Source: Mycobacteriales bacterium
GTDB taxonomy: Bacteria > Actinomycetota > Actinomycetes > BP-191
Length of the DNA: 64,000 bases
Assembly (NCBI GenBank): GCA_036382875.1
Contig: DASVPJ010000033.1
Coordinates: forward strand, 1,660 to 65,659
Direction: 5' to 3'
The translations under genes and the position numbers were made by a program. The notes under the pieces were generated by a model. That model had not been told where the DNA came from. It worked only from the letters and a program-made list of their open reading frames with translations, and did not search any database. Positions 12,386-59,103 of this stretch are shown one piece after another. Each line of letters begins with the position of its first letter. The stretch's first letter is position 1.

Positions 12386-13426
12386 CTACACGGCGACCGG
12401 CAGCTCCACCGGCGGCGCGTCCGCGAGCAGGTCGAGCACCGCCCACTCGACCGCGCCCTGCGTGCCGAGGTGCCCGGCCTGCGCGCCGGCGCCGAGCTTG
12501 TCGAGCGGCACGGTGACGCCGGACAGGTAGCGGTCCACCACGCGCGGGTCGACGTACGACGCCTTGCACACGGCGGGGGTGTTGCCGAGGTAGTGCGAGA
12601 CCTCCTGGTACATCCGGGCCACGGCCCGCCGGCGCGCGGTGCGGCTGCGCGACGCCTCGGCGCTCACCGCGAGCGCGACCGCCGCGAGCACGGTCGCCGC
12701 CCAGGTGCGGAAGTCCTTGGCGCTGAAGTCGCCGCCGGTGACCTCCTTGATGTACGCGTTGATGTCGGCGCTCTTCAGGTCGCACCAGCCGCCGTCCGCG
12801 CGGCGGTACGCGAGCAGCTCCGGGCCGCCGCCGCGGCGGCGCTTCAACGCCGTCACGACCTCGACCACGGTCGGCTCGACGATCGACTGGATGCGCTGCT
12901 TGCCGGACTTCGCGACGTAGTCGAACGTCACCACCTCCCCGCGCACGGTCACGTGGTCCTTGCGGATCGTGGCGAGGCCGTAGGTCTGGTTCTGCTCGGC
13001 GTAGCCCTCGGTGCCGATGCGGAAGAAGCCGAGGTCGAGCAGCCGCGCGGCGCAGGCCAGCACCCGCTCGCGGCCGAGGCCCTCGGTGCGCAGGTCGTCG
13101 TTGATGCGGTCGCGCAGCGCGGGCAGCGCGCGGCCGAACTCCACCATGTGCTCGAACTTCTCGCGGTCCCGTTGCGTCCGCCACGCGTCGTGGTAGCGGT
13201 ACTGCCGCCGCCCGGCCGCGTCGAGGCCGGTGGCCTGGATGTGGCCCCGCGGGTGCGCGCAGATCCACACGTCGGTCCACGCGGGCGGGATGACGAGCGC
13301 GTCGATGCGCGCGAGCACGTCGGGGTCGGTGACCCGGGCGCCGTTCTGGTCGACGTAGCTGAAGCCGCGGCCGACGCGCCGCCTGCGGATGCCCGGTGAG
13401 GCCGGGTCGACGCGCCGGAGCCGCAT
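12386..13426 (-). CDS. DNA topoisomerase IB (bacterial/poxvirus type)
   Basis: 346 aa. N-terminus GIRRRRVGRGFSYVDQNGARVTD...LVIPPAWTDVWICAHPRGHIQATGLDAAGRRQYRYH and C-terminal ...LGNTPAVCKASYVDPRV (active-site Tyr region) are characteristic of bacterial TopIB. Confidence 0.9.
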   Translation of the reverse strand: MRLRRVDPASPGIRRRRVGRGFSYVDQNGARVTDPDVLARIDALVIPPAWTDVWICAHPRGHIQATGLDAAGRRQYRYHDAWRTQRDREKFEHMVEFGRALPALRDRINDDLRTEGLGRERVLACAARLLDLGFFRIGTEGYAEQNQTYGLATIRKDHVTVRGEVVTFDYVAKSGKQRIQSIVEPTVVEVVTALKRRRGGGPELLAYRRADGGWCDLKSADINAYIKEVTGGDFSAKDFRTWAATVLAAVALAVSAEASRSRTARRRAVARMYQEVSHYLGNTPAVCKASYVDPRVVDRYLSGVTVPLDKLGAGAQAGHLGTQGAVEWAVLDLLADAPPVELPVAV

Positions 13427-13428
13427 CG

Positions 13429-13836
13429 TTACGCCTCGAACGTGTGCATCGCCGCTTCCTCGGCGCTGCGCTGGCCGTCGTCGCGGCCGACGTCGGTGGC
13501 GACGTTCTCCTTCACGTCGTCCTCGCGCGCGCCCTCGTCGGTGTCGACGATGCGCCCGGCCGGCTCGTCGCCGAGCCCCTCCGCCTCGGAGAGGTACGGC
13601 ACGTCCACCTCCATCGCCGGGTCGGGCGTCTCGCGGGACAGCCGCAGGTCGAGCGGCTCGCCGTCGCGCTGCTCGTTCGCCGTGGTGCCGTACTCGTTCA
13701 CGGCCACCGGGCGGTCGATCGGGGAGTGCTCGCGGTCGAGGATCTCGCCGGGCGTCATCTGCTCGTCCACGGCGATGTCGATGCCGGAGAGGCCGGCGTC
13801 GGCCTGGGTCGCGACCGGGGTCTGGTCGTCGCGCAT
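13429..13836 (-). CDS. Highly acidic small protein, function unknown
   Basis: 135-aa Asp/Glu-rich ORF. Its stop lies 2 nt before the TopIB start. Codon bias is consistent with coding. Confidence 0.65.
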   Translation of the reverse strand: MRDDQTPVATQADAGLSGIDIAVDEQMTPGEILDREHSPIDRPVAVNEYGTTANEQRDGEPLDLRLSRETPDPAMEVDVPYLSEAEGLGDEPAGRIVDTDEGAREDDVKENVATDVGRDDGQRSAEEAAMHTFEA

Positions 13837-13855
13837 GGTTCCTCCTCGGGTCGCG

Positions 13856-23253: not shown

Positions 23254-23276
23254 CTCCGGCACGAGCCGTTCCTCCG

Positions 23277-23351
23277 TGGGCCGCCAGGGACTTGAACCCT
23301 GAACCTGACAGATTATGAGTCTGCTGCTCTGACCGATTGAGCTAGCGGCCC
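23277..23351 (-). tRNA. tRNA with CAT anticodon (elongator Met, or Ile2 if lysidine-modified)
   Basis: Reverse complement GGGCCGCTAGCTCAATCGGTCAGAGCAGCAGACTCATAATCTGT...CAGGGTTCAAGTCCCTGGCGGCCCA. It has acceptor GGGCCGC/GCGGCCC, anticodon loop CTCATAA and T arm CAGGG-TTCAAGT-CCCTG. C4-G69/C5-G68 resemble the E. coli tRNA-Ile2 acceptor, so the identity is ambiguous. Confidence 0.88.
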
Positions 23352-24715: not shown

Positions 24716-27700
24716 ATGTCCGGACGGCTGTGCCGCGGTCGGGGGTCGCGCGACCAGGCGGTGCGCACGCGTGCCAGGGCACTCCTGGTCGTCGGCGGCG
24801 CGCTCGGGCTCGGCGGTGTGTTCGCCGTCGTGGCCCAGGGCGCCACGCCGCCCGCGTACGCCGCGACGGCGTCGATCGCCCCCGCGCTCTACTACATCGG
24901 CGACAGCACCGGCTCGAACTACGTCTTCACGGTGAAGAACACCGGCACGACGACGAAGATCGGCGCGGTCGAGATCACCCGCCCCAGCACCTACTGGACC
25001 GTCAACGGCTGCGTCGCGCCGTACGGCTGGGCCGCCCAGCTCGCCGACACCAAGTGCCGCTTCCGCGCGTCCAACTCCAGCTTCTTCATCGCCGCGAACG
25101 GCGCCTCCAAGAACTTCACGGTCAAGGCCAAGACCGCGGCCGGCAACGTCGACCGCGTCGGCACCTGGCCGGTCATCGTGAGCGCGAGCAGCCAGTTCGA
25201 CAACACCAGCCTGCTCAAGTACGCCTCGCCCGCGGGCGGCGGCCTCACGACCAAGCTGCACACGTTCGAGCTGATCACCGCCGTCGTCTCCGACACGGCG
25301 AAGACGCCCGGCACCGCGTGCCCGGCGGCGAACAAGGACGCGGTCGTCGGCTCGCAGAAGACGATCGTGGTCTGCGGCCGCAACCGCGCCAACGTCGCGC
25401 TGCTCCCGTCGAGCGCGTACTCGTCGTTGAGCGGCACCTTCGTCAAGACGGCGGGGACGTTCTCCTCCGGCGTCATCCAGCCGAACAGTGCCAACGTCGT
25501 CCTCGCGCAGTGGGTCAACACCACCGTCAGCGACGTCTTCGGCTCCGGCAAGAAGGTCGTCACCAAGGTCGGCGCGCGCAGCGACCGCACGTCGCCGCTG
25601 CGGACGTTCACCGGTTACAACGCCACCAGCTCGCCGCCGGTGGCGGTCGACGACTCGGGCTACTCGGTCAACGAGGACGCGCAGCTCTCGGTCCCGGCGG
25701 ACGGCGTGCTCGGCAACGACACCGACGCCGAGAACGACCCGCTGACGGCGGTCGACGCCACCGACCCGGCGCACGGCACCGTGGCGCTGAACGCCGACGG
25801 CTCCTTCACCTACACGCCCGACCCCGACTACGCCGGCCCGGACTCGTTCCAGTACAAGGCGTACGACACGCACAGCAAGTCCGGCAGCGCGACCGTGTCG
25901 ATCACCGTCAACCCGGTGAACGACGCGCCGGTGGCGCAGCCGGTGTCGGCGTCGACGAACGAGGACACGGCGAAGGCGGTGACGCTGAGCGCGTCCGACG
26001 TGGACGGTGACTCGCTGTCGTACGCGATCGTGACCGGTCCTGGGCACGGTTGGCTGGGCGTGATCTCGGGTGACTCGGTGACGTACACGCCGGACCCGAA
26101 CTACTTCGGTGGGGACTCGTTCCAGTACAAGGCGACGGACGGCACGGCGGACTCGGCGCCGGTGACGGTGACGTTGACGGTGACGTCGGTGAACGACGTG
26201 CCGGTGGCGGATGACGAGGCGTACGCGACGGACGAGGACACGCAGCTCGCGGTCACGGCGCCGGGTGTGCTGGACGGTGACACGGACGTGGAGTCGTCGC
26301 CGTTGACGGCGGTGCTGGTGTCCGGTCCGTCGCACGGGTCGTTGACGCTGAACGCGAACGGTTCGTTCACGTACACGCCGGCGGCGAACTACTTCGGTGC
26401 GGACTCGTTCAAGTACAAGGCGAACGACGGCACGGCGGACTCGGCCGTCGCGACGGTGGCGATCACGGTCGGCTCGGTGAACGACGCGCCGGTGGCGCAG
26501 CCGGTGTCGGCGTCGACGAACGAGGACACGGCGAAGGCGGTGACGTTCAGCGCGTCCGACGTGGACGGTGACTCGCTGTCGTACGCGATCGTGACCGGTC
26601 CTGGGCACGGTTGGCTGGGTGCGATCTCGGGGAACTCGGTGACGTACACGCCGGACCCGAACTACTTCGGTGGGGACTCGTTCCAGTACAAGGCGACGGA
26701 CGGCACGGCGGACTCGGCGCCGGTGACGGTGACGCTGACCGTGACGTCGGTTAACGACGCGCCCGTCGCGGGCGACGACGCGTACCAGGTGATCCAGGGC
26801 AACGCGCTCGTCGTCTCCGCCCCGGGCGTGCTGGCGAACGACACCGACGTCGACGCGGGCGCCACCAAGACGGCCCTCAACGCGAGCACGCCCGCGCACG
26901 GCGGCGTGACGCTCAACGAGGACGGCTCCTTCACGTACACGCCGGTGACCACCTACACCGGTCCCGACTCGTTCACCTACGACGTGAGCGACGGCACGGC
27001 CACCGACACCGCGACGGTGAGCCTGACCGTCGTCCCGCCGAACGCCACCCCGACCGCGGACGCGACGAGCGCGAGCGGCAACGAGGACGCCGGCGCGATC
27101 ACGGTCACGCTGACCGGCCACGACAGCGACGACGACAACCTGACGTTCGCGGTCAGCTCGCCGGTCGGCGGCACCCTCGGCACCCCGGCCGCGCCGGCCG
27201 ACTGCACCACGACGGCACTGACCTGCACGACGACGGTCACCTTCACGCCGGCGGCGGACTTCAACGGCGCGGGCTCGTTCAGCTACACGGTGTACGACGG
27301 GACCATCTCCTCGGCGCCGGCCGGCGCGACCGTCACGGTGAACCCGGTCAACGACGCGCCGTCGTTCACGGCGGGCGCGGGCCAGACGGTCAACGAGGAC
27401 GCGGCCGCGCAGACCGTCACCGGCTGGGCGACGGGCGTCAGCGCCGGCCCGGCCAACGAGTCCGCGCAGACCGTGTCGTTCACGGTCACGAACGACGACA
27501 ACTCCCTGTTCGCGACGCAGCCGGCGGTCTCGCCGACCGGCACGCTCACGTACCTCCCGGCGAGCGACGCGAACGGCGTCGCCACCGTGTCGGTGAAGAT
27601 CACCGACGACGGCGGGAACGCCAACGGCGGCGTCGCCGAGAGCGCGGTGCAGACGTTCACGATCACGGTCACCGCGGTCAACGACGCGCCGTCGTTCCTC

Positions 27701-30700
27701 AAGGGCGACGACCAGACCGTGCTCGAGGACTCCGGCACGTACTCGGTCTCCAACTGGGCCAGCGCGATCAGCAAGGGCCCGGCCGACGAGTCGGGGCAGG
27801 CGCTGACGTTCGACGTCGACGTCGACACCCCGGCGCTGTTCCTGGCGCAGCCGACCCTGTCGGACACCGGCACGCTGCAGTACACCCTGGCCGCTGACGC
27901 CGTGGGCACCGCCACCGTCACGGTGACGCTGTCGGACAACGGCGGCGTGCTGAACGGCGGCGACGACACGTCCGACGCGCAGACGTTCACCATCACGATC
28001 ACCCCGGTGAACGACGCGCCGAGCTTCACCACGGCGGGCAGCCAGAGCGTCCTCGAGGACGCGGCCGCGCAGACGGTGAACGGCTTCGTCACGAGCACGA
28101 GCGCCGGCCCGGCGGACGAGGCGGGCCAGACGGTCACCGTCGCGGTGACGAACGTCACAAACCCGACGATGTTCGCGGTCCAGCCGACGATCACCAACGG
28201 CACGCTGACCTACACGCCGGCGGCGAACGCCAACGGCGTCTCGACGGTCACCGTCAGCGCGACCGACGACGGCGGCATCGCGAACGGCGGTGACGCCACC
28301 AGCGACAACCAGACGTTCGCGATCACCGTCACCGCGGTGAACGACGCCCCGTCGTTCGTCAAGGGGCTGGACGAGACGGTGCTCGAGGACGCCGGCACGC
28401 AGTCGGTCTCCAACTGGGCGACGTCGATCAGCGCCGGCCCGGCCAACGAGAACACGCAGACCGTGGCGTTCACGGTCACGAACAACAACAACGGGCTGTT
28501 CCTGACCCAGCCGACGATCTCGCCGACCGGCACGCTGGTGTACGCCGCGGCGGCCAACAAGTACGGCACCGCGACGGTGACCGTCGTGCTGAAGGACAGC
28601 GGCGGCACCGCGAACAGCGGCGTCGACACCGCGCCGACGCAGACGTTCGTCATCACGGTCAACCCGGTGAACGACCCGCCGTCCGCGATCGACCAGAGCT
28701 TCAGCGTGCAGACGAACATGAAGATCTCGCTGAGCGGCCTGTTCACCGGCGCGACCGACACGGCCGACACCGACCAGCAGCCCGGCTACACGCCGCAGTA
28801 CTCGGTCGGCACGATCACCGCGACCGGCGCGAACTGCCCCGGCTGCGTCGTCAGCGGCGTGAACAACGCGCTGGGCACGTTCGACTTCGAGCCGCCGCCC
28901 GGCCAGACCGGCACGTTCACGCTCAAGTACACGATCGTCGACAGCGGCTACCCGACGCCCGGCGTGGAGAGCGCGCAGAAGACGCTCACGTTCACCGTGT
29001 CGGGTGACGTGATCTGGTTCGCCGACGCGACGAGCGGCGACGACGTGACCGGCAACGGCACGCTCGCGCGACCGTTCAAGACGCTCACCGCGGTCGCCGG
29101 CGTCGACGCCACCAACCACAAGGTGTTCGTGCACCCCGGCACCTACAGCACGGCGTTCACGCTCAACGCGGGCGAGTGGCTGACCGGCGCGGGCACCAAG
29201 GCGGCGAGCTTCGACGCGCTCATGGGCATCACCCCGCCGGCCGGGACCATCGCTCGCCCGTCGATCAACGGCACCAACCCGACGGTGTCGGGCGCGGTCA
29301 CGCTGGGCTCGGGCAACACCCTGCGCGGCGTCGACCTCACGGGTGCGACGGCGCTGAGCGGCAGCAACTTCGGGACCCTGACGCTGGGCTCGGGGCTCAG
29401 CACCGACGTGCGGCTGAACAGCACCGGCCAGGCGCTGAACCTTAACACCGGCACGATCAGTGGTGACCTCCTCTCGACCACGTCCACCGGCAGCGCCGCG
29501 GACAACGTCAACCTGACGACCGTCTCGACGACCGGCACCTCGCTCGGCACCGGCGCGCTCTCCGGCGCGACCGGCGACGCCCTGGAGATCAACGGCGGCA
29601 CGGGCTCGTTCAGCTACGCCGGCACGGTCACCAACACGTCGGCCGGCCGGGCCGTCGCGATCCTGAACAAGACCGGCACCTCCACGGTCGCGCTGTCCGG
29701 CGCGGTCAACGACAACAGCGGCGCAGGCGTCGCGATGACCGGCAACAGCAGCGGCACCACGGTGAGCCTCACCGGCGGCGTCGTGCTCAGCTCCGGCACG
29801 CAGCCCGCGTTCGTGGCGACCGGGGCCGGCACGGTGTCGGTCACCGGCGCGACGAACACCATCACCAGCACGACCGGCACGCCGCTGAACATCACGAACG
29901 TCTCGATCGGCGCGGCCGACGTGACGTTCCAGAGCATCAGCGCGAACGGCGCCGCGAGCGGCATCGTGCTGGACAACACCGGCAGCGCCGGCAACTTCGC
30001 CCTGACCGGCACCGGCACGACCGCCGGTTCGGGCGGCACCATCCAGAACGGCACCGGCGGCGACCTCACGTCGAACCAGTGCGCCGCGGTGTCGTCCACG
30101 GCGGGCACCGGCATCTTCCTGAGGAACACCCGCGACGCGTCGCTGAAGAACATGAACCTCAGCAACTTCTCGAACTTCGCGGTCCTCGGCTACGACGTCA
30201 CGAACCTCACGATGGACCGGTTCTCCGTCACCGGCACGAACGGCAGCAACTCGAGCCAGGACGAGGACAGCGTCCACTTCTGCAACCTGCTGGGCTCGGC
30301 GACGATCTCGAACTCGACCATCAACGGCGGCTTCGAGAACAGCCTCCGCGTCTACAACACGAGCGGCACGCTGAACAGGCTGACGGTGTCGGCGACGACG
30401 CTGGCCACCCGTTCGGCGACGACCGACGCGGACGACGCGTTCCTCGCGACGGCGTTCAACACCGCCACGATGAACGTCACGTTGAGCAACGTCACCGCGA
30501 CCACCGCGCGCGGCGACCTGGTCCAGTACGCGCTGGGCGACAACTCGACCGGTGACCTGGTCATCCAGAACAGCACGTTCACCAACAACCACCCGGCGAT
30601 GCTGGGCGGCGGCGGCGGCGTGACCCTGGGCGCGGGCTCGGCGAGCACGTCGGTGAGCACGAACTTCACCTACAGCGTCACGAACAACTCGTTCAGGGAC

Positions 30701-31309
30701 GCGGTCGGCAACGGGCTCACGCTGTTCCTCGGCAACGGCACCGCGTCGGGCACCATCGCGAGCAACACGTTCGGTGTCAGCGGGGTGCAGAAGTCGGCCG
30801 GCGCCGCGAGCGGCATCGCCGTGACGAAGATCAAGGGCGGGACCGGCAAGGTGTCGATCCTGAACAACACGATCCGCTCCTACGGCGCGGACGCCGGCAT
30901 CCGCGTCCTCGCGAACGACGGCAACCCGACGCTGCGCGCCACGATCACCGGGAACTCGGTCACCGAGCCGAGCACGGCGGCGGGCAGCCCGTCCTTCGCC
31001 GGCATCACGGTGGAGCCGGGCGCGACCGGGACGGACAACGTCACGATGTGCCTGGACCTCGGCGGTGCCGGTGCGCTCCAGAACTCCGTCAGCAACGGTG
31101 ACCCGTCGAACTTCAACGACATCAACCTGCCGCTGAACGGCAACACGACGGTGGACCTGCCCGGCTACGCCGGCGGGACCACCGACACGACCGCGGTCGG
31201 CAACTACCTGAAGGCCCGCAACAGCGGCGACGGCACGCCGACCGTGTTCGTGAGCAACAGCTTCGTCGGCACCTCGAGCTTCACGCACGTCGCCTCGAAC
31301 TGCCTCTGA
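24716..31309 (+). CDS. Giant (2197 aa) secreted repeat protein: Sec signal, N-terminal domain, about 11 cadherin-like/Ig (tandem-95 type) repeats, C-terminal right-handed beta-helix region
   Basis: ATG at 24716 after GGGAGCAGGGGG. Signal ...ALLVVGGALGLGGVFAVVAQGATPPAYA. Repeats end in VNDAP/VNDVP/VNDPP junctions and carry the internal motifs NEDT/LGNDTD, GSFTYTP and DSFxYK. The last ~800 aa are G/N/T/S-rich with parallel-beta-helix-like periodicity (NSxxxNN, GGG turns). No C-terminal sorting signal. Confidence 0.9.
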   Translation: MSGRLCRGRGSRDQAVRTRARALLVVGGALGLGGVFAVVAQGATPPAYAATASIAPALYYIGDSTGSNYVFTVKNTGTTTKIGAVEITRPSTYWTVNGCVAPYGWAAQLADTKCRFRASNSSFFIAANGASKNFTVKAKTAAGNVDRVGTWPVIVSASSQFDNTSLLKYASPAGGGLTTKLHTFELITAVVSDTAKTPGTACPAANKDAVVGSQKTIVVCGRNRANVALLPSSAYSSLSGTFVKTAGTFSSGVIQPNSANVVLAQWVNTTVSDVFGSGKKVVTKVGARSDRTSPLRTFTGYNATSSPPVAVDDSGYSVNEDAQLSVPADGVLGNDTDAENDPLTAVDATDPAHGTVALNADGSFTYTPDPDYAGPDSFQYKAYDTHSKSGSATVSITVNPVNDAPVAQPVSASTNEDTAKAVTLSASDVDGDSLSYAIVTGPGHGWLGVISGDSVTYTPDPNYFGGDSFQYKATDGTADSAPVTVTLTVTSVNDVPVADDEAYATDEDTQLAVTAPGVLDGDTDVESSPLTAVLVSGPSHGSLTLNANGSFTYTPAANYFGADSFKYKANDGTADSAVATVAITVGSVNDAPVAQPVSASTNEDTAKAVTFSASDVDGDSLSYAIVTGPGHGWLGAISGNSVTYTPDPNYFGGDSFQYKATDGTADSAPVTVTLTVTSVNDAPVAGDDAYQVIQGNALVVSAPGVLANDTDVDAGATKTALNASTPAHGGVTLNEDGSFTYTPVTTYTGPDSFTYDVSDGTATDTATVSLTVVPPNATPTADATSASGNEDAGAITVTLTGHDSDDDNLTFAVSSPVGGTLGTPAAPADCTTTALTCTTTVTFTPAADFNGAGSFSYTVYDGTISSAPAGATVTVNPVNDAPSFTAGAGQTVNEDAAAQTVTGWATGVSAGPANESAQTVSFTVTNDDNSLFATQPAVSPTGTLTYLPASDANGVATVSVKITDDGGNANGGVAESAVQTFTITVTAVNDAPSFLKGDDQTVLEDSGTYSVSNWASAISKGPADESGQALTFDVDVDTPALFLAQPTLSDTGTLQYTLAADAVGTATVTVTLSDNGGVLNGGDDTSDAQTFTITITPVNDAPSFTTAGSQSVLEDAAAQTVNGFVTSTSAGPADEAGQTVTVAVTNVTNPTMFAVQPTITNGTLTYTPAANANGVSTVTVSATDDGGIANGGDATSDNQTFAITVTAVNDAPSFVKGLDETVLEDAGTQSVSNWATSISAGPANENTQTVAFTVTNNNNGLFLTQPTISPTGTLVYAAAANKYGTATVTVVLKDSGGTANSGVDTAPTQTFVITVNPVNDPPSAIDQSFSVQTNMKISLSGLFTGATDTADTDQQPGYTPQYSVGTITATGANCPGCVVSGVNNALGTFDFEPPPGQTGTFTLKYTIVDSGYPTPGVESAQKTLTFTVSGDVIWFADATSGDDVTGNGTLARPFKTLTAVAGVDATNHKVFVHPGTYSTAFTLNAGEWLTGAGTKAASFDALMGITPPAGTIARPSINGTNPTVSGAVTLGSGNTLRGVDLTGATALSGSNFGTLTLGSGLSTDVRLNSTGQALNLNTGTISGDLLSTTSTGSAADNVNLTTVSTTGTSLGTGALSGATGDALEINGGTGSFSYAGTVTNTSAGRAVAILNKTGTSTVALSGAVNDNSGAGVAMTGNSSGTTVSLTGGVVLSSGTQPAFVATGAGTVSVTGATNTITSTTGTPLNITNVSIGAADVTFQSISANGAASGIVLDNTGSAGNFALTGTGTTAGSGGTIQNGTGGDLTSNQCAAVSSTAGTGIFLRNTRDASLKNMNLSNFSNFAVLGYDVTNLTMDRFSVTGTNGSNSSQDEDSVHFCNLLGSATISNSTINGGFENSLRVYNTSGTLNRLTVSATTLATRSATTDADDAFLATAFNTATMNVTLSNVTATTARGDLVQYALGDNSTGDLVIQNSTFTNNHPAMLGGGGGVTLGAGSASTSVSTNFTYSVTNNSFRDAVGNGLTLFLGNGTASGTIASNTFGVSGVQKSAGAASGIAVTKIKGGTGKVSILNNTIRSYGADAGIRVLANDGNPTLRATITGNSVTEPSTAAGSPSFAGITVEPGATGTDNVTMCLDLGGAGALQNSVSNGDPSNFNDINLPLNGNTTVDLPGYAGGTTDTTAVGNYLKARNSGDGTPTVFVSNSFVGTSSFTHVASNCL
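25916..26198 (+). repeat. Copy A of a 283-nt near-identical intragenic direct repeat (561-nt period)
   Basis: About 96 percent identical by eye to 26477-26759. Encodes repeat VNDAPVAQPVSASTNEDTAKAVT.SASDVDGDSLSYAIVTGPGHGWLG.ISG.SVTYTPDPNYFGGDSFQYKATDGTADSAPVTVTLTVTSVND. Confidence 0.9.
26477..26759 (+). repeat. Copy B of the 283-nt intragenic direct repeat
   Basis: See copy A. The offset is exactly 561 nt (187 codons), so unequal recombination would stay in frame. Confidence 0.9.
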
Positions 31310-31342
31310 CCCCGCTCGCCCGCAACCAGACTGGGAGGCGCT

Positions 31343-31837
31343 ATGGCTGAACCTTTCCTCGGGGAGGTCCGGTTGATGAGCTTCAACTTCGCACCGAAGG
31401 GCTGGGCCCTGTGCAACGGCCAGCTCCTGCCGATCAACCAGAACCAGGCGCTGTTCTCGATCCTCGGGACGACGTTCGGCGGCAACGGCCAGACGACGTT
31501 CGCGCTGCCCGACCTGCGCGGTCGCGTGCCGGTGCACTGGGGTTCGGGGAGCGTCACGCTCGGCCAGCGGGGCGGTGAGGAGGCGCACACGATCACGCAG
31601 AGCGAGATGCCCGCGCACAACCACCTCGTGCAGGCGTCGAACACGAACGCCGACCAGGTCATCCCGTCGATCCTCGCGGCCACGAACAACGCCTACGCGC
31701 CGGTGGGGAACCTCACGACGCTGAACCCGGCCGCGATCTCGAACGTGGGCGGCTCGCAGCCGCACGAGAACCGGCAGCCGTACACCGTGATCAGCTTCTG
31801 CATCGCGTTGCAGGGCATCTTCCCGTCGCGCAACTGA
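31343..31837 (+). CDS. Phage tail collar domain (Collar/MdpB-like) protein, paralogue 1
   Basis: 164 aa. MAEPFLGEVRLMSFNFAPKGWALCNGQLLPINQNQALFSILGTTFGGNGQTTFALPDLRGRVP ... GGSQPHENRQPY is the canonical Collar-domain signature. GGGAGG RBS. No signal peptide. Confidence 0.92.
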   Translation: MAEPFLGEVRLMSFNFAPKGWALCNGQLLPINQNQALFSILGTTFGGNGQTTFALPDLRGRVPVHWGSGSVTLGQRGGEEAHTITQSEMPAHNHLVQASNTNADQVIPSILAATNNAYAPVGNLTTLNPAAISNVGGSQPHENRQPYTVISFCIALQGIFPSRN

Positions 31838-31852
31838 GAGGACCTCGGACAC

Positions 31853-32371
31853 ATGGCACAGCCCTACGTCGGAGAGATCCGGATGTTCGGCGGCAACTTC
31901 CCACCCGTGGGGTGGGCGCTCTGCAACGGACAGCTCCTCGCGATCTCCGAGAACGACACGTTGTTCACTCTCATCGGGACGACCTACGGCGGTGACGGCC
32001 AGGAGACGTTCGGCCTCCCGAACCTCGGCGGTCGCGTCCCGGTCCACCAGGGGCAGGGCCCCGGTCTCCAGAACTACCAGATCGGCGAGACCGCCGGCGT
32101 CCAAGAGGTGACGCTGACGACGCAGCAGATCCCCGTGCACACGCACGCGCTCGTCGCGTCGCAGAACCAGGGGACGTCGGGCAACCCGGGCAACCAGGTC
32201 CTCGCCACGGGCCCGAACGTCCAGCTCTTCCGGTCGATCGCCCCCGCGCTCACGCTCGCCAACAACGTCGTGCTGCCCGTCGGCGGTTCGCAGCCGCACA
32301 CCAACCTGCAGCCGTACCTCGCGCTCACGTTCATCATCTCGCTGTTCGGCATCTTCCCGTCGCCGACCTGA
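31853..32371 (+). CDS. Phage tail collar domain protein, paralogue 2
   Basis: 172 aa. MAQPYVGEIRMFGGNFPPVGWALCNGQLLAISENDTLFTLIGTTYGGDGQETFGLPNLGGRVP ... GGSQPHTNLQPY. 15 nt after paralogue 1. Confidence 0.92.
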   Translation: MAQPYVGEIRMFGGNFPPVGWALCNGQLLAISENDTLFTLIGTTYGGDGQETFGLPNLGGRVPVHQGQGPGLQNYQIGETAGVQEVTLTTQQIPVHTHALVASQNQGTSGNPGNQVLATGPNVQLFRSIAPALTLANNVVLPVGGSQPHTNLQPYLALTFIISLFGIFPSPT

Positions 32372-32401
32372 TCTCGCTCCCATGCCTTAGGAGGGCATCG
32401 A

Positions 32402-32920
32402 ATGGCTGACCCGTTTGTCGCCGAGATCAGGATCTTCTGCGGCAACTTCCCGCCGACCGGCTGGGCGTTCTGCAACGGCCAGCTACTGCCGATCTCGCAG
32501 AACACCGCCCTGTTCTCGCTGCTGGGCACGTACTACGGCGGTGACGGCAAGAGCACCTTCGCGCTGCCGAACCTCGTGGACAACGTGCCGGTGGGCGCCA
32601 CCAACGACAACCAGTTCCCGCTCGGCGCCCAGGGCGGCTCGCAGACCGTGACGCTGCTCCAGTCGGAGATCCCGGTGCACACCCACCTGGTCAACGCCTC
32701 GAACCAGCCGGCCCAGCTCAACGCCCCCGGGCCGGACCGCATCCTGGCGCGGTCCGCGGGCGGCAGCGCCTACCAGAGCAACACGTCGGCGAACCTCGTG
32801 ACGATGGACCCGAACTCGCTCAGCGTCGCGGGCGCGTCGTTCCCGCACAACAACATGATGCCGTTCCTGGGAATGACGTTCATCATCGCGCTCCAGGGCG
32901 TGTTCCCCGCGCGGCAGTAA
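32402..32920 (+). CDS. Phage tail collar domain protein, paralogue 3 (divergent in the RGR motif)
   Basis: 172 aa. MADPFVAEIRIFCGNFPPTGWAFCNGQLLPISQNTALFSLLGTYYGGDGKSTFALPNLVDNVP ... GASFPHNNMMPF. AGGAGG RBS. Confidence 0.92.
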   Translation: MADPFVAEIRIFCGNFPPTGWAFCNGQLLPISQNTALFSLLGTYYGGDGKSTFALPNLVDNVPVGATNDNQFPLGAQGGSQTVTLLQSEIPVHTHLVNASNQPAQLNAPGPDRILARSAGGSAYQSNTSANLVTMDPNSLSVAGASFPHNNMMPFLGMTFIIALQGVFPARQ

Positions 32921-32923
32921 CGC

Positions 32924-33385
32924 GTGGAGGTGTCGCTCCGCGACGCCGGGCCGGACGACCGGGAGCTGCTGCACGCCGTGTACGCCAGCACCCGGTCGCC
33001 CGAGCTGGCGGCGCTGGGCTGGGACGGCGCCACGACGGCGGCGTTCCTCCGGATGCAGGCGGAGGCGCAGGAGGCCGGCTACCTGGGCCGGCATCCGGGC
33101 CTGCGCAGGCTCGTCGTGTCGTGCGACGGCGCCGACGTCGGCCGGCTCTACCTCGCCGACCTGCCGGGCGAGGTGCGGGTCGCGGACGTGGCGCTGCTGC
33201 CGGAGTGGCGCGGTCGCGGCATCGGCACCCGGCTGCTGGCCGAGGTCGTCGAGGGCGCCGCGGGGCGGGTCGTGTCGCTGCACGTGACGCCCGGCAACCC
33301 GGCGATCCGGCTGTACGAGCGGCTCGGGTTCGCCGTCACGGCGTCCGACGAGACGTCGGTGCGGATGGAGAGGTCGCCTAGTTGA
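32924..33385 (+). CDS. GNAT family N-acetyltransferase
   Basis: GTG at 32924, 3 nt after collar paralogue 3. Acetyl-CoA motif LLPEWRGRGIGTRLL and C-terminal RLYERLGF. Confidence 0.85.
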   Translation: MEVSLRDAGPDDRELLHAVYASTRSPELAALGWDGATTAAFLRMQAEAQEAGYLGRHPGLRRLVVSCDGADVGRLYLADLPGEVRVADVALLPEWRGRGIGTRLLAEVVEGAAGRVVSLHVTPGNPAIRLYERLGFAVTASDETSVRMERSPS

Positions 33386-33665
33386 ACGTCGCCTCGTAGC
33401 GCGGCACGCCGTCGGCCGCCGGTGCGCGGGGCACCAGGAAGAGGTCGAGCCGGCCCATCGCGTCGTGCTCGAGCGCGTAGGTGCCCTGCGGCAGCGACAC
33501 CGTGGGCGGCGACGTGAACCACAGGCTGAACGGCTCGCGCGGACCGCCCGCGGGGGCCGCGCGCTCGACGGCCACCAGGGTCAGCGGTGCCGTGCCGTCC
33601 TCGGCCAGGACGGTGAACGACGTCCCCTCGTGGGGCGAGAACGAGTCGGCGGAGAGTTCGGTCAC
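33378..33665 (-). CDS. Small beta-rich protein (95 aa, no signal), paralogue of 33805..34203
   Basis: MTELSADSFSPHEGTSFTVL...FSLWFTSP...LPQGTYALEHDAMGRLDLFLVP...RYEATFN. Converges on the GNAT gene with an 8-nt overlap. Confidence 0.75.
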   Translation of the reverse strand: MTELSADSFSPHEGTSFTVLAEDGTAPLTLVAVERAAPAGGPREPFSLWFTSPPTVSLPQGTYALEHDAMGRLDLFLVPRAPAADGVPRYEATFN

Positions 33666-33804
33666 GGCGCGGAACGCTACACGCGCGCCGGGGCCGCCGG
33701 GTGGGGCGGGCCTCCCGCACCACCCGATCGGATGATCTTGCGGCGTTCGCCGGACGGCGACGGTATCCCCGCGTACGGTTTGCCCGCGGGGTCAGGGAGG
33801 GCTC

Positions 33805-34203
33805 GTGCACGACACATCGCGCCGCACGCTGCTTCGGGCGGCCGTCTTCGGTGCCGTCACGGTCGCGGTGCCCGGCGTCGCCGCGGGCCGGGCGAGCGCG
33901 CTCAGCGTCGCGTCGTCGCCGACCCGGCTGCGCAGGCGGGTGTTCGTGCCGCACGTCGGCACCTCGTTCCTGCTCACGTCCGGCCGCGCGACGTACCGCG
34001 CGATCCTCACCGAGGTCAGCGACTCGACCCGCGCCGCGGGGCACGACCGCCGCTTCGGGCTGACGTTCCGGATCGCCGGCGCCGCCCGGCCCGCCGACGG
34101 GACGTACGCCGTGACCCACCCGCACCTGCGGGCGTTCGACCTCTACGTCGGCGCGGTGGGGAAGCCGGAACGCGGCCTCTACGAGGCCGTCGTCAACGCC
34201 TGA
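33805..34203 (+). CDS. Tat-signal small beta-rich protein (132 aa), paralogue of 33378..33665
   Basis: GTG start after GGGAGGG. Twin-arginine signal TSRRTLLRAAVFGAVTVAVPGVAAGRASA. The mature part aligns with the neighbour (FVPHVGTSFLL / FGLTFRIA / DGTYAVTHPHLRAFDLYVG / LYEAVVNA). Confidence 0.75.
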   Translation: MHDTSRRTLLRAAVFGAVTVAVPGVAAGRASALSVASSPTRLRRRVFVPHVGTSFLLTSGRATYRAILTEVSDSTRAAGHDRRFGLTFRIAGAARPADGTYAVTHPHLRAFDLYVGAVGKPERGLYEAVVNA

Positions 34204-55713: not shown

Positions 55714-55716
55714 CCG

Positions 55717-57942
55717 CTACGCCGTCACGTCGGCGAGCCGCAGCCGCAGCCCGCTCAGGCGCACCGGCGCCGCGCCGCCGGCGAGCGTGACGTCGAGCAG
55801 CACCGCGTCCGCCGGCGGCCCCGCCTCGCGCCACGCGGTGACGTGCGCCGCGAGCCGGTCCGCCGCCTCGGCGTCGAGCGGGTCCGCGAAAAGCACCGTG
55901 ACGGGAATCGACGACAGGCCCACCGCGGCCGACACCTGGACCTGCGCCTTCGGGTGGACCCCCTCGCGGGTGAGCGCCGCGAACAGCGCGGCCAGGTGCT
56001 CCCGCAGCGGCCGCGGCCCGGGGCCGAGCGCGGCGACGTCGAGACGGAGGTCGACGCTGACCGAGGGGGCGACCCGCGGGTACCCCAGCACGGCGGTCGC
56101 GTAGGCGAACGCGGCCGGCGCGTCCGCGTTGCGGACCACGCGCAGGGTCGGGGACGCGGCCGGCCGGCGCAGCGCGTCGAGCCAGCCGACCTCGAGGGTG
56201 CGCCGCTGCGCGCCCTCCTCGCGGGACAGCGGCGTGCCGTCGGCGGCGCGGTACGTCCACGCGCGGGTCGCGCGGTTGTCGCCCGACGGCCGCGGGGGCG
56301 CGTCGACGGCGGTGCACCCCTCGACCAGCACGCGCGGGGTCGCGCCGTCCGGCAGCGAGTACGCGACGGTGACCCGCAGCGCGCCGTCGAGGGTGTCCTC
56401 GCGGATCGTGACGGGCGCGTCCGGCGGGACGGGCGGCGGCTCGCGGCCGACCCACGCGGCCCACGCCTCGTCCAGGCCCTCGGCGAGGGAGGCGAGCGCG
56501 GCGGCGGCGCCGGGGGCGCCCGGCGGGATGCGCGGCGCGGCGACCACGATGCGGGCGAGGCGCTCCGGCAGGTCGCCGCCGAGGTCGGGCGGCGCCGCCG
56601 CGAGCAGCCCGGCGTCCGGGTCGGCCTCGGGTCGCGCGTCCGGCTCGGGCGCCGCCAGCCCGAGCGTCACGTCGAGGCGGTCGTCGTCGGTCAGCTCGGC
56701 GGCGTACTCCAGGCGGACCAGCCACTGGATCGCCCGCCGCAGCGCCTCGGCCGCGTCGTCGCCGGGGTCTTTCAGGGCGGGCTCGGCCGCCGCCGCGACG
56801 GGCGGCAGCGGCAACGCGAGCAGCGGCAGCCGCGCCGGCACCTCCGCCGTCGCGACCGGCGGGTCCACCACCTCCAGCGGCCCGGCCTGGTGCTCGACCC
56901 AGCCGACGCGGGAGGCGAGCGGCGTGCCCGGCGGGCCGGCGAGCGGCCCGGCGTACGTCAGCGTCCGCGCCCCGGCCGCGAGCCGGTGCGTCCGCGGCCC
57001 CTCGACCACGACGGGGAACGCCGGCGGCTCGGCCAGCTCGTGCTGGAGCACGACCGGCGGGCGGTCGGTGAGGCGGTGCAGCAGGCGTTCGGTCAGGGCG
57101 GCCCGGGCCTCGTCCAGCGCGGCGCCGTCCGGCTCCGTTCCCATCGGGCGCAGCCCCGACGCGATCGCGGCCGCGAGCCGGGTCCTGGTCCGGGCGAGAT
57201 CCGGGGAGTCGGCGCGCTCCAGCGCGGCCAGCGCGTCGTCGGCGAACCGCGCCAGGTCGATCCCGTGGAACACCATCGTCCCGGCCGGCACGAGGCCGCC
57301 GCCCGCCTCGTCCCAGGAGTGCACCGACACCTCGAGGTCCACCGGCACCGTCGACAGCGGCGCGAGCGCGTAGACCCGGGCCTCCGACAGCGCGTACGGC
57401 GCGAGCGCCAGCGCCCAGACCGTGCGGTGCGGCCACCCGGTGCGCGGCGGCCCGTACGCCGCGAGCAGCGCGCCGCCGAACGCCTCCGCCAGCATCGCCA
57501 CGACGTCCCCGGACGGCGCCACCTCCTGCGTGGCGTCGCCGACGACGAGCGACACCGACACCTCGGTCACCTCTGGCGGCGACGGCGTCGCGAGCGTTCG
57601 CGAGAACGTCACCGGCTCCGGCGCCGGGCCCGGCGTGCCGCCGTGCTCGCCGAGCCGCCGGCCGAGCCAGCGGACCGCGGCGGCGGTGTGCTCGCGCGCC
57701 CGCTCGACCTCCTCGTCGCGCGCCGGCATCGCCGTGTCGAGGCTGCACGCGGTGAGCGGGCGTTCGGCCGTCAGGACGTCGGCGACGGCGACGAACGCCT
57801 CGCGGTCCGCCGTCGCGGCCGCGGCCCCCGCGTCGCCGTCGTAGCGCCCGGGGTCGAACGCCGCCTCGACCGTGAGCCGGGCGCCCGCGGCGTCGCGGAC
57901 GAGCCGGTACGAGTACGCGAGGGGGCCGAGGAGGGCGGTCAC
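55717..57942 (-). CDS. Large (about 741 aa) Ala/Pro/Leu-rich protein with no motif I can recognise
   Basis: Long frame with uniformly G/C third positions and a non-repetitive sequence. The only frame in this interval with protein-like composition. GTG at 57942 or ATG at 57987. The part of the ORF upstream of about 57990 overlaps the nif3-like gene and was excluded. Confidence 0.65.
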   Translation of the reverse strand: MTALLGPLAYSYRLVRDAAGARLTVEAAFDPGRYDGDAGAAAATADREAFVAVADVLTAERPLTACSLDTAMPARDEEVERAREHTAAAVRWLGRRLGEHGGTPGPAPEPVTFSRTLATPSPPEVTEVSVSLVVGDATQEVAPSGDVVAMLAEAFGGALLAAYGPPRTGWPHRTVWALALAPYALSEARVYALAPLSTVPVDLEVSVHSWDEAGGGLVPAGTMVFHGIDLARFADDALAALERADSPDLARTRTRLAAAIASGLRPMGTEPDGAALDEARAALTERLLHRLTDRPPVVLQHELAEPPAFPVVVEGPRTHRLAAGARTLTYAGPLAGPPGTPLASRVGWVEHQAGPLEVVDPPVATAEVPARLPLLALPLPPVAAAAEPALKDPGDDAAEALRRAIQWLVRLEYAAELTDDDRLDVTLGLAAPEPDARPEADPDAGLLAAAPPDLGGDLPERLARIVVAAPRIPPGAPGAAAALASLAEGLDEAWAAWVGREPPPVPPDAPVTIREDTLDGALRVTVAYSLPDGATPRVLVEGCTAVDAPPRPSGDNRATRAWTYRAADGTPLSREEGAQRRTLEVGWLDALRRPAASPTLRVVRNADAPAAFAYATAVLGYPRVAPSVSVDLRLDVAALGPGPRPLREHLAALFAALTREGVHPKAQVQVSAAVGLSSIPVTVLFADPLDAEAADRLAAHVTAWREAGPPADAVLLDVTLAGGAAPVRLSGLRLRLADVTA

Positions 57943-57999
57943 GCGGCCAGTGTGCTCCCGCGCCGCCGCGCCGGGACGAGAACCCATAAGGTCGCGCAC

Positions 58000-59103
58000 G
58001 TGGCCGCGCGAGTAGGGGACTGGGTCGCCGCGCTGGAGGCGCTGTACGACCCGCGCTGGGCCGAGCCGTGGGACGCGGTCGGGCTCGTCTGCGGCGACCC
58101 CGACGCCCCCTGCGAGGAGGCGGTGTTCGCCATCGACCCGGTCTCGGCGACGGTGGACGAGGCGATCGCGCGCGGCGCGCGGCTGCTCGTGACCCACCAC
58201 CCGTTGCTGCTGCGCGGCGTGCACGGCATCCCGGTCACCGACCACAAGGGCGCGCTCGTCACCCGCCTGGTCGAGCACGGCGTGGCGCTCTACGTCGCGC
58301 ACACCAACGCCGACAACGCCAACCCCGGCGTCTCCGACGCGCTCGCCCGCGCGCTCGGCGTCGAGGACGTCGCGCCGCTGTCGCCCGGCCCGCCCGACGA
58401 CGCGGCCAAGCTCGTCGTGTTCGTCCCGCCGGAGGCCACCCAGCGCGTGGTCGACGCGCTCGCCGGCGCCGGCGCGGGGCGGATCGGCGACTACGGCCGG
58501 TGCGCCTGGTGGGCGGACGGGACGGGGACGTTCGAGGCGGGCCCGGACGCCCGGCCGGCGGTCGGCGAGCCGGGCGAGCGGACCGAGACGGCGGAACGCC
58601 GCGTCGAGATGGTCGTGCCGCGCACCCGCCTGGCGCCGTGCATCAGGGCGCTGCTGGCGGCGCACCCGTACGAGGAGCCGGCGTACGACGTGCTGCCCGT
58701 CCTGCTCCCCAACGACCGCGGCGCCGGCCGGGTCGGCACGCTGCGCGAGCCGGTGACGTTGCGCGAGCTCGTCGCGCGGGTCGCCGACGCGCTGCCCGCG
58801 ACCGTCAACGCGGTGCGGGCCACCGGCGACCCCGACCGGCGGGTCGAGCGGGTCGCGGTCTGCGGCGGCGGGGGCGACGACCTGATCGACGCGGCGCGGG
58901 GGGCCGGCGCGGACGTCTACGTCACCGCCGACCTGCGGCACCACCCCGCCTCCGAGGCGGCCGAGCGCGGCCTCGCGCTGGTCGACGCCGGGCACTGGGC
59001 CACCGAGTGGCCGTGGCTCGCGGACGCCGCCGAGCGCGTGGGTAGGGTGGGCCGGACGCACGTCTCGACCCTCGTCACCGACCCGTGGAGCCTGCTCGCG
59101 TGA
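58000..59103 (+). CDS. Nif3-like dinuclear metal centre protein (YbgI/NIF3 family)
   Basis: WDAVGLVCGDP, LLVTHHPLL, VALYVAHTNAD, central PII-like insert, C-terminal YVTADLRHH...GLALVDAGHWATE. Confidence 0.9.
   Translation: MAARVGDWVAALEALYDPRWAEPWDAVGLVCGDPDAPCEEAVFAIDPVSATVDEAIARGARLLVTHHPLLLRGVHGIPVTDHKGALVTRLVEHGVALYVAHTNADNANPGVSDALARALGVEDVAPLSPGPPDDAAKLVVFVPPEATQRVVDALAGAGAGRIGDYGRCAWWADGTGTFEAGPDARPAVGEPGERTETAERRVEMVVPRTRLAPCIRALLAAHPYEEPAYDVLPVLLPNDRGAGRVGTLREPVTLRELVARVADALPATVNAVRATGDPDRRVERVAVCGGGGDDLIDAARGAGADVYVTADLRHHPASEAAERGLALVDAGHWATEWPWLADAAERVGRVGRTHVSTLVTDPWSLLA

Follow-up and report, generated by a model that had tools for sequence, protein, structure and literature searches.

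Three consecutive Collar proteins of the virophage DSLV2 have been reported to resemble the tip of T4 gp37, to co-purify in a 1:1:1 ratio, to form fibres of 16 nm and to bind Synechococcus cells (PMC12724248). In bacteria, the Collar protein RhiB of Rhizobium leguminosarum, encoded in the rhiABCR operon, is quorum-regulated, is expressed in the rhizosphere and influences nodulation, and a Collar protein has been detected in the exoproteomes of Ruegeria pomeroyi (PMC4949626), while the paper on the Solibacter paralogues reports a positive-selection test only. Herein, a locus at positions 24,716 to 34,203 of a 64-kb stretch of DNA from a Mycobacteriales bacterium (contig DASVPJ010000033.1 of assembly GCA_036382875.1; the whole stretch is termed the window) is described, in which a gene for a large surface protein, three Collar genes (c1, c2 and c3), a gene for a GNAT N-acetyltransferase and two genes of the DUF6916 family lie side by side. 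The locus is a real cassette, whose Collar genes (usually three), GNAT, DUF6916 and large protein with a beta-helix travel together from genome to genome. No paper describing this cassette or mentioning DUF6916 was found in a literature search conducted outside the subscription journals.

The constancy of the cassette was established across genomes by scanning an alignment of the Collar proteins against one genome per GTDB species, which gave at least 595 loci, and the best 80, with 54-70% identity to c1, were kept. The six-frame open reading frames (ORFs) of these 80 loci were searched with hidden Markov models built in this study, and the 52 loci that extend at least 4 kb on each side were treated as the complete subset. 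At least three tandem Collar genes were present in 74 of the 80 loci and in 50 of the 52 complete ones, the cassette GNAT in 70/80 and 50/52, at least one DUF6916 gene in 65/80 and 45/52, GNAT and DUF6916 together in 64/80 and 45/52, and two DUF6916 genes in 28/80 and 20/52. These loci are spread over about 11 phyla, including Actinomycetota, Chloroflexota, Acidobacteriota, Verrucomicrobiota, Myxococcota, Phycisphaerae and Eremiobacterota, and their proteobacterial carriers belong to the Alpha-, Beta- and Gammaproteobacteria (Bradyrhizobium, Mesorhizobium, Chiayiivirga, Wenzhouxiangella and Marinicella). Further carriers are found in Bacteroidota (Flavobacterium and Dyadobacter) and Paenibacillus, and a later plasmid search added Deinococcus. 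When all ORFs of at least 80 amino acids (aa) were clustered all against all, only Collar, DUF6916, GNAT and the large protein of about 2000 aa recurred; the other clusters of similar size were antisense shadow ORFs of these same genes, and no secretion-system or phage family was recurrent in the flanks of the 80 loci. As a viral control, Collar loci of IMG/VR contigs were analysed, among which identity did not exceed 52% in the best 79; DUF6916 was present in one and the cassette GNAT in two of these 79, so that bacterial and viral Collar loci differ with p = 1e-28 for DUF6916 and p = 3e-31 for GNAT (Fisher's exact test). A preceding interpretation of the same DNA, made without database searches and termed the sequence-only reading here, had regarded these genes as one conserved unit and had staked that view on their co-occurrence in related genomes; the check was strongly passed, and the unit is borne out by its recurrence in about 11 phyla and in unrelated flanks.

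The closest relatives of the locus (L002, L004 and L005) have the downstream flank of the window in common with it and are therefore not independent evidence. A Baekduia metagenome-assembled genome (MAG) with a different flank carries a beta-helix giant, three Collar genes, GNAT, a short DUF6916 gene and a divergent long one, and the full cassette stands in yet another flank in L174. Other orders are also encountered: in a JGI lineage the series reads long DUF6916, GNAT, sulfotransferase, short DUF6916, Collar triplet and large protein, and in L014 it comprises long DUF6916, a single Collar gene, GNAT and short DUF6916. Collar genes were likewise present in contexts seeded with DUF6916 whose flanks are unrelated (L007/L008, L009, L011-L013, L014, L174 and L175). 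In L009 and L175, a DUF6916 gene with a twin-arginine translocation (Tat) signal is directly followed by a single Collar gene, with an overlap of 8 nt in L009. L009 (9066-11444) represents a minimal cassette, where a collagen-like protein with GxY repeats and a C-terminal globular domain stands in place of the giant and the GNAT gene, which the public gene call had cut to 51 aa, follows the Collar gene. L010 consists of DUF6916, GNAT and a giant protein, with no Collar gene, and its DUF6916 gene is located 404 nt from the contig end.

Cultured carriers include Flavobacterium phragmitis and, among plasmids, the megaplasmid of Ruegeria sp. TM1040 (NC_008043, 292367-296080), plasmid pB of Sinorhizobium meliloti LMB1 and pDFI2 of Deinococcus ficus, and the RefSeq names given in cultured carriers are 'tail fiber protein' (three times), 'GNAT family N-acetyltransferase' and 'hypothetical protein'. 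A convergent, overlapping pair of a GNAT gene and a gene for a 97-aa protein also exists in S. meliloti and Ruegeria, and in Ruegeria the 97-aa product is a match to the DUF6916 profile. Three Collar genes were found as well on plasmids of Aminobacter, Tritonibacter and Paenibacillus, where inspection was confined to the triplet. Between the third Collar gene and GNAT, D. ficus (L176, 7081-8241) and Ruegeria sp. TM1040 (L177, 10650-11867) encode an extra protein of about 390-405 aa, labelled 'ABC transporter substrate-binding protein' in the former and 'hypothetical' in the latter, and separate clusters of ORFs of about 416-437 aa recur in a few genome loci. A Sulfotransfer_3 gene occurs in L011 (11252-12250), and a sulfotransferase gene with an adjoining Asp/Arg (Asn) hydroxylase gene in L009 (11444-12951). 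The addition of a sulfotransferase and an Asp/Asn hydroxylase to some cassettes hints that accessory enzymes modify cassette proteins.

In the window, the large protein gene (24716-31309, + strand), which encodes 2197 aa beginning with an export signal, is followed on the same strand by c1 (31343-31837, 164 aa), c2 (31853-32371, 172 aa), c3 (32402-32920, 172 aa) and the GNAT gene (32924-33385, 153 aa), whose start codon lies 3 nt past the c3 stop. The successive intergenic gaps measure 33, 15, 30 and 3 nt, and the Shine-Dalgarno-like sequences GGGAGG, GAGAGGA and AGGAGGG are located 5' of c1, c2 and c3, respectively. The short DUF6916 gene (33378-33665, - strand; 95 aa, without a signal) is convergent with GNAT, whose 3' end it overlaps by 8 nt, and the long DUF6916 gene (33805-34203, + strand; 132 aa, with a twin-arginine signal) is divergent from the short one across a gap of 139 nt. 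All seven genes of the sequence-only reading were recovered with the same coordinates, gaps and strands, as were the ribosome-binding sites that it had noticed before the three Collar genes.

The three Collar proteins match PF07484 with E-values of 2e-29, 4e-27 and 7e-26 for c1, c2 and c3 (101.8, 94.5 and 90.4 bits against a gathering cut-off of 24), together with an additional weak match to Gp10_C in Pfam. Over their whole length they match phage tail and fibre families of PHROGs, c1 corresponding to phrog_9116, and their sole relative of solved structure detected by sequence is the phage long tail fibre 8kec (E 3e-5). The HxH motif of the T4 gp12/gp37 type, which reads HNH in c1 and HTH in both c2 and c3, is present in 238 of 240 Collar homologues. 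None of these homologues bears an N-terminal extension, and no signal peptide was detected in the 240 proteins or in c1, c2 and c3. Residues 1-63 and the last 30 or so residues are 80-99% conserved across phyla, in sharp distinction to the highly variable residues ~95-135; compared with a syntenic Frankiaceae relative, the middle retains about 30% identity and the N-terminus 78%.

The consecutive, co-oriented Collar genes also show position-specific orthology. Their N-termini are near-invariant by position (MAEPFL in c1, MAQPYV in c2 and MADPFV in c3), and when each homologue was assigned to the nearest paralogue of the window, the gene order c1-c2-c3 was found in 49 of the 80 loci, those without it being mostly ambiguous assignments or truncated contigs. 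Neither a capsid gene nor any other viral gene stands beside the triplet in the window or the related loci. A heterotrimeric Collar knob had been proposed by the sequence-only reading, and by analogy this proposal is now backed by the conserved gene order and by the virophage 1:1:1 heterotrimer (PMC12724248). Because the bacterial triplet has the genetic signature of the virophage triplet, a heterotrimeric mini-fibre formed from c1, c2 and c3 is the best-supported inference, and one that we draw from likeness.

Several further observations concern the Collar proteins. Tandem arrays of six to nine Collar genes, amounting to two or three triplets in a row, exist in L095, L096, L024, L069 and L077, the first of which is an IMG/VR contig of 5.4 kb containing nine Collar genes and nothing else. 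MrpC of Microcystis was considered as a Collar protein and rejected, since it is the pilin of a tubular pilus. Variation of the Collar proteins driven by a diversity-generating retroelement was likewise dismissed, as no reverse transcriptase gene is present near the cassette and the RVT_3 match at 59.8 kb belongs to an RNase H/phosphatase gene.

The large protein is composed of a signal peptide, a beta-rich N-terminal region of about 260 aa, about 10-11 repeats and a beta-helix module. Its export signal (24716-24862, + strand; MSGRLCRGRGSRDQAVRTRARALLVVGGALGLGGVFAVVAQGATPPAYA), read from the translation as a positively charged and hydrophobic segment, is of the Sec type by inspection, with an approximate cleavage site. 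The lineage-specific array of immunoglobulin (Ig)/cadherin-like repeats of ~91-110 aa, bounded by VNDAP, extends over 25646-28681 (+ strand). Matches to Big_9, Cadherin_4, Cadherin_5 and the tandem-95 repeat NF012211 were obtained in Pfam and NCBIfam, the last with E 3e-125 and 408 bits against a cut-off of 90 in 10 matched stretches, which places the protein in that family. The sequence-only reading had counted about 11 VNDAP-delimited repeats; the array itself was confirmed, and the number is better given as about 10-11, with nine VND[AVP]P boundaries and one that reads PNATP. Two of the repeats (aa ~405-500 and ~590-690, within 25900-27700 of the window) are nearly identical, with the pattern PVAQPVSASTNEDTAKAVT[LF]SASDVDGDSLSYAIVTGPGHGWLG...TVTLTVTSVND, which points to a recent intragenic duplication or gene conversion.

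In single-sequence and iterated searches, the part of the large protein kept across phyla proved to be the C-terminal ~860 aa, the Ig/cadherin array being variable. This module (28706-31306, + strand; aa 1331-2197, 867 aa) was predicted by AlphaFold2, from an alignment with 42 homologues, as a single Ig-like domain that leads into a long right-handed parallel beta-helix, with a mean predicted local distance difference test score (pLDDT) of 92. The best Foldseek matches were the phage tailspikes CBA120 TSP3, Dettilon gp208 and LKA1 gp49, a K1-capsule lyase, GH28 and PL6 enzymes and Ag43, including the entries 6nw9, 6f7k, 7w1c, 2uve and 5z9t, at E 1e-4 to 1e-2 and with low template modelling (TM) scores of 0.2-0.3. 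The assignment as a right-handed parallel beta-helix thus comes from the predicted fold and the structural matches, together with Pfam Beta_helix matches on relatives. Two cysteines near the end of the helix (aa 2112 and 2196, within 31270-31306) are kept in the module alignment as ...C....GN... and a C-terminal ...GGA.CP.P, and they may form a capping disulfide.

A homologous beta-helix module is encoded in an adjacent large ORF in 50 of the 80 loci and in 39 of the 52 complete loci under the stricter filter, and in 54 of the 80 by the looser count of the iterated search. The large ORF mostly has the same direction as the Collar genes, and the position of the module follows the gene order, being C-terminal where the large gene precedes the Collar genes and mostly near the N-terminus or in the middle where it follows them. 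The remainder of the large partner differs among lineages: it bears a C-terminal sorting domain of the type IX secretion system in Flavobacterium, three SLH domains, seven CBM_X2 domains and one fn3 domain in Paenibacillus, and RTX repeats in a Solirubrobacterales MAG. Since the partner is exported or surface-anchored in each lineage examined, the function of the cassette is placed at the cell surface. The view of the sequence-only reading that the giant protein belongs to the cassette accordingly holds for the conserved beta-helix module and fails for the giant as a whole, whose Ig/cadherin repeats and anchors are lineage-specific.

The two small beta-rich proteins, which had been recognized as paralogous modules in the sequence-only reading, both belong to DUF6916 (PF21880; cut-off 27 bits), with E 6e-29 and 100.5 bits for the short form and E 1.5e-13 and 51.1 bits for the long one. 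AlphaFold2 predicted the short form as an N-terminal helix and a six-stranded beta-barrel (pLDDT 93). The long form has the N-terminus VHDTSRRTLLRAAVFGAV, whose twin-arginine signal SRRTLLRAAVFGAVTVAVPGVAAGRASA includes SRRTLL; by inspection, the S/T-R-R-x-F/L-L motif, a hydrophobic stretch and an AxA-type site are all present, and although the Pfam TAT_signal model gave no report for this protein, the motif is evident to the eye. The long homologues inspected, from many clades, all carry twin-arginine signals (such as SRRTLLR, SRRSFLKS or TRRKFLRAG), one of them degenerate, and among the short proteins inspected no signal peptide was detected. The twin-arginine signal first noticed on the single long protein is thus family-wide, and it also stands beside single signal-less Collar genes in the minimal loci.

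DUF6916 is a very large family, for which an exhaustive profile search gave 11,260 clusters at 50% identity (E <= 1e-3). A profile search returned 74 homologues, all with DUF6916 as the sole Pfam domain and of two sizes, ~95-105 and ~125-185 aa. A search for fusions of DUF6916 to Collar, GNAT or other domains found none, only a DUF6916-DUF6916 tandem and some low-complexity or extra beta-rich tails. P0085, P0116, P0188 and P0207 are Tat-DUF6916 proteins of ~270-330 aa, in which a Pro/Ala/Gly-rich linker leads to a beta-rich, Arg-rich C-terminal domain of ~100 aa without a Pfam match. A natural fusion of a Tat signal with two DUF6916 domains (P0075) joins both forms and suggests that short and long DUF6916 act as a pair, while the immunity-like or cytoplasmic-counterpart role once suggested for the short paralogue found no support. 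Over the 80 loci, 27 have a Tat form and a short form, four a Tat form only, 33 a short form only, one carries a pair of short forms, and DUF6916 is missing from the remaining 15, many of them truncated contigs; within 10 kb of the cassette, Tat-signal DUF6916 is thus near 31 and the signal-less form near 61. A profile search of DUF6916 against solved structures returned nothing even at E <= 10, no PHROG was matched, and the PADLOC models of anti-phage defence matched none of the eight proteins searched. A kinship with tail-tube proteins or Hcp was considered and not adopted, for the Foldseek matches are generic small barrels (stopper, tail-terminator, 43-kDa tail protein, Hcp, and ferredoxin-reductase and protease half-barrels).

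The GNAT protein has the GNAT fold, matching Acetyltransf_1 and Acetyltransf_7 in Pfam (E 1e-12), and in the window it is without a signal peptide. It forms its own orthologous group, with orthologues at E 1e-45 to 1e-68 in 70 of the 80 Collar loci. Every NCBIfam model of a characterised subfamily (RimI, MshD, streptothricin acetyltransferase and others) scored far under its cut-off, as exemplified by rimI with 31.6 against 86.4 bits, and no close solved or characterised relative was found, those in the PDB being generic (E >= 2e-7). A toxin-antitoxin pair was rejected because an antitoxin-type partner is missing and the genes to which GNAT is linked are those of the Collar proteins and the large protein, and lysine acetylation of the Collar proteins was rejected because their alignment contains no invariant lysine. 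The almost invariant start M-[AS]-[EQD]-P-[FY] of the Collar proteins favours N-terminal acetylation, and from this start it may be guessed, on thin grounds, that the target is their Ala/Ser-2 N-terminus.

Taken together, these results lead us, with moderate confidence, to regard the cassette as a horizontally spread module for recognition or adhesion at the cell surface, built from two modules of the phage receptor-binding type. As to how such a module might operate, c1, c2 and c3 would fold in the cytoplasm into a 1:1:1 heterotrimeric mini-fibre resembling the T4 gp37 tip, in which the N- and C-terminal ends would form the collar, with a metal site at HxH, and the variable middle would serve as the ligand-binding tip. 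The cytoplasmic GNAT would modify a cassette protein, the favoured target being the invariant Ala/Ser-2 N-terminus of the Collar proteins, and the DUF6916 barrel, in the role of chaperone or adaptor, would bind to the Collar trimer. If a Tat-signal DUF6916 is present, it would pair with the short form and take the complex through the membrane in its folded state. Once outside, the tip would work with, and perhaps dock on, the beta-helix module of the anchored large protein, directed at a polysaccharide or cell-surface ligand. This specific model of Tat carriage and docking on the beta-helix is put forward tentatively. Equally tentative, and somewhat doubtful as a whole, is the fullest version, namely a mobile, phage-derived apparatus with an acetylated c1:c2:c3 tip, DUF6916 carriers whose Tat members export it, and a mount on the beta-helix of an anchored giant, the tip being swappable and fast-evolving.

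Of the export routes, only Sec and Tat are shared by all of these phyla, monoderm and diderm alike. The suggestion in the sequence-only reading that signal-less Collar proteins hitch-hike on the Tat-signal protein is reasonable and has been strengthened by the tight pairs of Tat-DUF6916 and a single Collar gene in L009 and L175. As a general export route it did not stand: with the Tat paralogue near 31 of the 80 cassettes and the signal-less form near 61, Tat hitch-hiking cannot be the common route unless a Tat copy is encoded elsewhere in the genome.

The surroundings of the cassette are those of an ordinary chromosome. The window has a guanine-cytosine (GC) content of 74% and matches a 140-kb ENA metagenome contig (ERZ27253064) on which the same genes are called, and its other genes belong to the core chromosome (DnaG, the principal sigma factor, S8 peptidases, topoisomerase IB and pyruvate dehydrogenase E1), accompanied by RNase P RNA and four tRNAs. 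In the 64 kb, no integrase, terminase, capsid, sheath, tube, baseplate or tape-measure gene was revealed by annotating the window with Pfam or by the precomputed assignments of the flanks, and no Rfam element lies near the cassette. The earlier conclusion that the locus lacks phage context and is neither a prophage nor a tailocin nor an extracellular contractile injection system (eCIS) therefore holds, the Pfam content of the window being that of core chromosomal genes only. The GC content is 70.2% in the cassette (24716-34203), 67.4% in the Collar genes and 74.7% in the rest of the window, and a tRNA-Met gene (23276-23351), with no integrase, lies 1.4 kb upstream. The lower GC, the nearby tRNA-Met, the 54-70% identity across phyla and the frequent megaplasmid location suggest that the cassette was acquired horizontally. 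Elsewhere in the window, 55714-59229 has about 80% GC and a long ORF on each strand (1170 aa for - and 1130 aa for +, the - product having no Pfam match), and 12386-13855 (- strand) holds a gene for a type IB topoisomerase of the eukaryotic/poxvirus-like kind (Topoisom_I and Top1B_N_bact).

The phage-like character of the parts raises the question of a remnant. The Collar matches to phage tail and fibre PHROGs, the tailspike-like beta-helix and the tRNA-Met gene 1.4 kb upstream are what a decayed prophage, tailocin or eCIS with surviving fibre genes would leave behind, and such an origin is nevertheless very unlikely, as neither the window nor the flanks of the 80 loci yielded an integrase, terminase, capsid, sheath, tube or baseplate gene, the same four families recur in about 11 phyla, and the viral Collar loci, at most 52% identical, are nearly devoid of GNAT and DUF6916. 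Chance or purely syntenic adjacency of unrelated genes would fit the downstream flank that L002, L004 and L005 have in common with the window, but it is scarcely credible in view of the many unrelated flanks and rearranged orders in which the same families are met and of the contrast with the viral loci (Fisher p = 1e-28).

Two other explanations accept the cassette and assign it a different role. The Collar trimer, GNAT and short DUF6916 might remain inside the cell as an accessory set that holds, targets or modifies the large protein before Sec export, in the manner of the accessory Asp proteins and acetyltransferases that serve serine-rich adhesins. Such a set would agree with the lack of signal peptides on 240 Collar proteins, the inspected short DUF6916 proteins and the GNAT of the window, with the 33 of 80 cassettes that have no Tat-signal partner nearby, and with the lack of a dedicated secretion gene conserved in the neighbourhood. 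We consider it unlikely, however, because a variable middle between conserved ends resembles a ligand-binding tip rather than a housekeeping chaperone, the minimal cassettes have Collar, Tat-DUF6916 and GNAT without the beta-helix giant, the homologous virophage triplet is an external receptor-binding fibre, and a Collar protein occurs in the roseobacter exoproteome. Alternatively, a soluble Collar trimer, secreted, released by lysis or bacteriocin-like, might be a lectin-like or competition factor that targets other cells, with GNAT and DUF6916 in charge of maturation or self-protection and the large protein merely a frequent neighbour of related ecological role. The variable tip, the signs of horizontal spread (54-70% identity across phyla, lower GC and frequent megaplasmids), the prevalence of carriers among soil, rhizosphere and alga-associated bacteria, and the quorum-regulated, rhizosphere-expressed Collar protein RhiB would all suit a released factor; the absence of a toxin domain from every cassette protein and the linkage of the beta-helix module in 39 of the 52 complete loci, with a position that tracks the gene order, which a loose neighbourhood hardly explains, make it improbable.

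The surface recognition module that we favour has its own difficulties, which should be set against it. The contact of the Collar proteins with the large protein or DUF6916, and their exit from the cell, are predictions of the model. About 60% of the cassettes have no Tat-signal DUF6916 within 10 kb, 33 of the 80 having the short form only, and with only about 40% encoding the Tat form nearby, Collar export is left unexplained in most loci; in diderm bacteria, moreover, Tat reaches the periplasm only. The beta-helix module was not found beside 13 of the 52 complete loci, and the minimal loci have other proteins instead, such as the collagen-like one of L009. The DUF6916 fold gave weak structural matches only (Foldseek against PDB and BFVD, E >= 0.01 and TM <= 0.54), the GNAT is without an informative characterised relative, and N-terminal acetylation is a guess from the conserved start, Ala or Ser at position 2 being common in proteins generally. 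Furthermore, as the 80 loci are those nearest to c1 of the window, the percentages apply to this Collar subfamily and not to all Collar proteins.

What is new here is the combination of phage receptor-binding modules with giant surface proteins in an undescribed, conserved cassette of four families, which has a real chance of representing an apparatus of a new type. From Actinomycetota to Bacteroidota the cassette retains 54-70% identity, and it also resides on the megaplasmids of model symbionts (Sinorhizobium, Ruegeria/Tritonibacter and Aminobacter). The association provides the first functional context for DUF6916, a very large domain family, and links the RhiB/MdpB proteins to a defined set of partners. 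It further suggests that cells reuse phage receptor-binding modules, the fibre tip and the tailspike, for their own surface interactions, and it offers a hypothesis on the export of signal-less, probably metal-binding trimers, with cultured carriers that include model symbionts. If the full apparatus were true, proteins of the RhiB/MdpB type, functionally unexplained since 1992, would gain a role, and a new class of Tat hitch-hiker cargo would be added.

Compared with the known systems, the cassette has the Collar domain and the HxH metal-binding motif in common with the T4 gp37 tip, the gp12 short tail fibre and the C-terminal domain of gp10. In the virion, the phage proteins terminate a long shaft as homotrimers, whereas the cassette encodes three separate paralogues whose sequences start directly at the collar, and neither a shaft nor phage genes accompany them. 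By description, the closest named bacterial relatives are RhiB and the COG4675 'MdpB' proteins, which are likewise Collar proteins encoded on bacterial chromosomes or plasmids. The rhi operon has a single Collar gene between RhiA and RhiC, and, RhiA and RhiC being reported to have no Pfam domain, it lacks DUF6916 and GNAT. The module of the large protein resembles the tailspikes, beta-helix enzymes and Ag43 in its long right-handed parallel beta-helix, and differs in that the cassette chain is monomeric, is preceded by a Sec signal and lies within a repeat-rich surface protein.

Export of signal-less partners by Tat hitch-hiking is known, for example, from hydrogenase HybO/HybC and from DmsA/DmsB. 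As in those systems, the Tat protein of the cassette is encoded beside signal-less partners, for which cytoplasmic folding, oligomerisation and insertion of a metal are probably required; unlike them, the predicted carrier is a cofactor-less beta-barrel of about 90 aa, and the Tat form is absent from about 60% of the cassettes. The nearest likeness is to the tripartite tail proteins of DSLV2, which are also encoded by three co-oriented PF07484 genes for proteins of ~170-190 aa with a position-specific phylogeny, a conserved collar and a variable head (PMC12724248). The two differ in that the DSLV2 proteins are mounted on a capsid and are unaccompanied by GNAT, DUF6916 and a beta-helix giant. 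The DSLV2 heterotrimer, which binds lipopolysaccharide, has been demonstrated by experiment (J Virol 2025, PMC12724248); by analogy, this virophage Collar heterotrimer is probably the closest functional counterpart of the cassette triplet.

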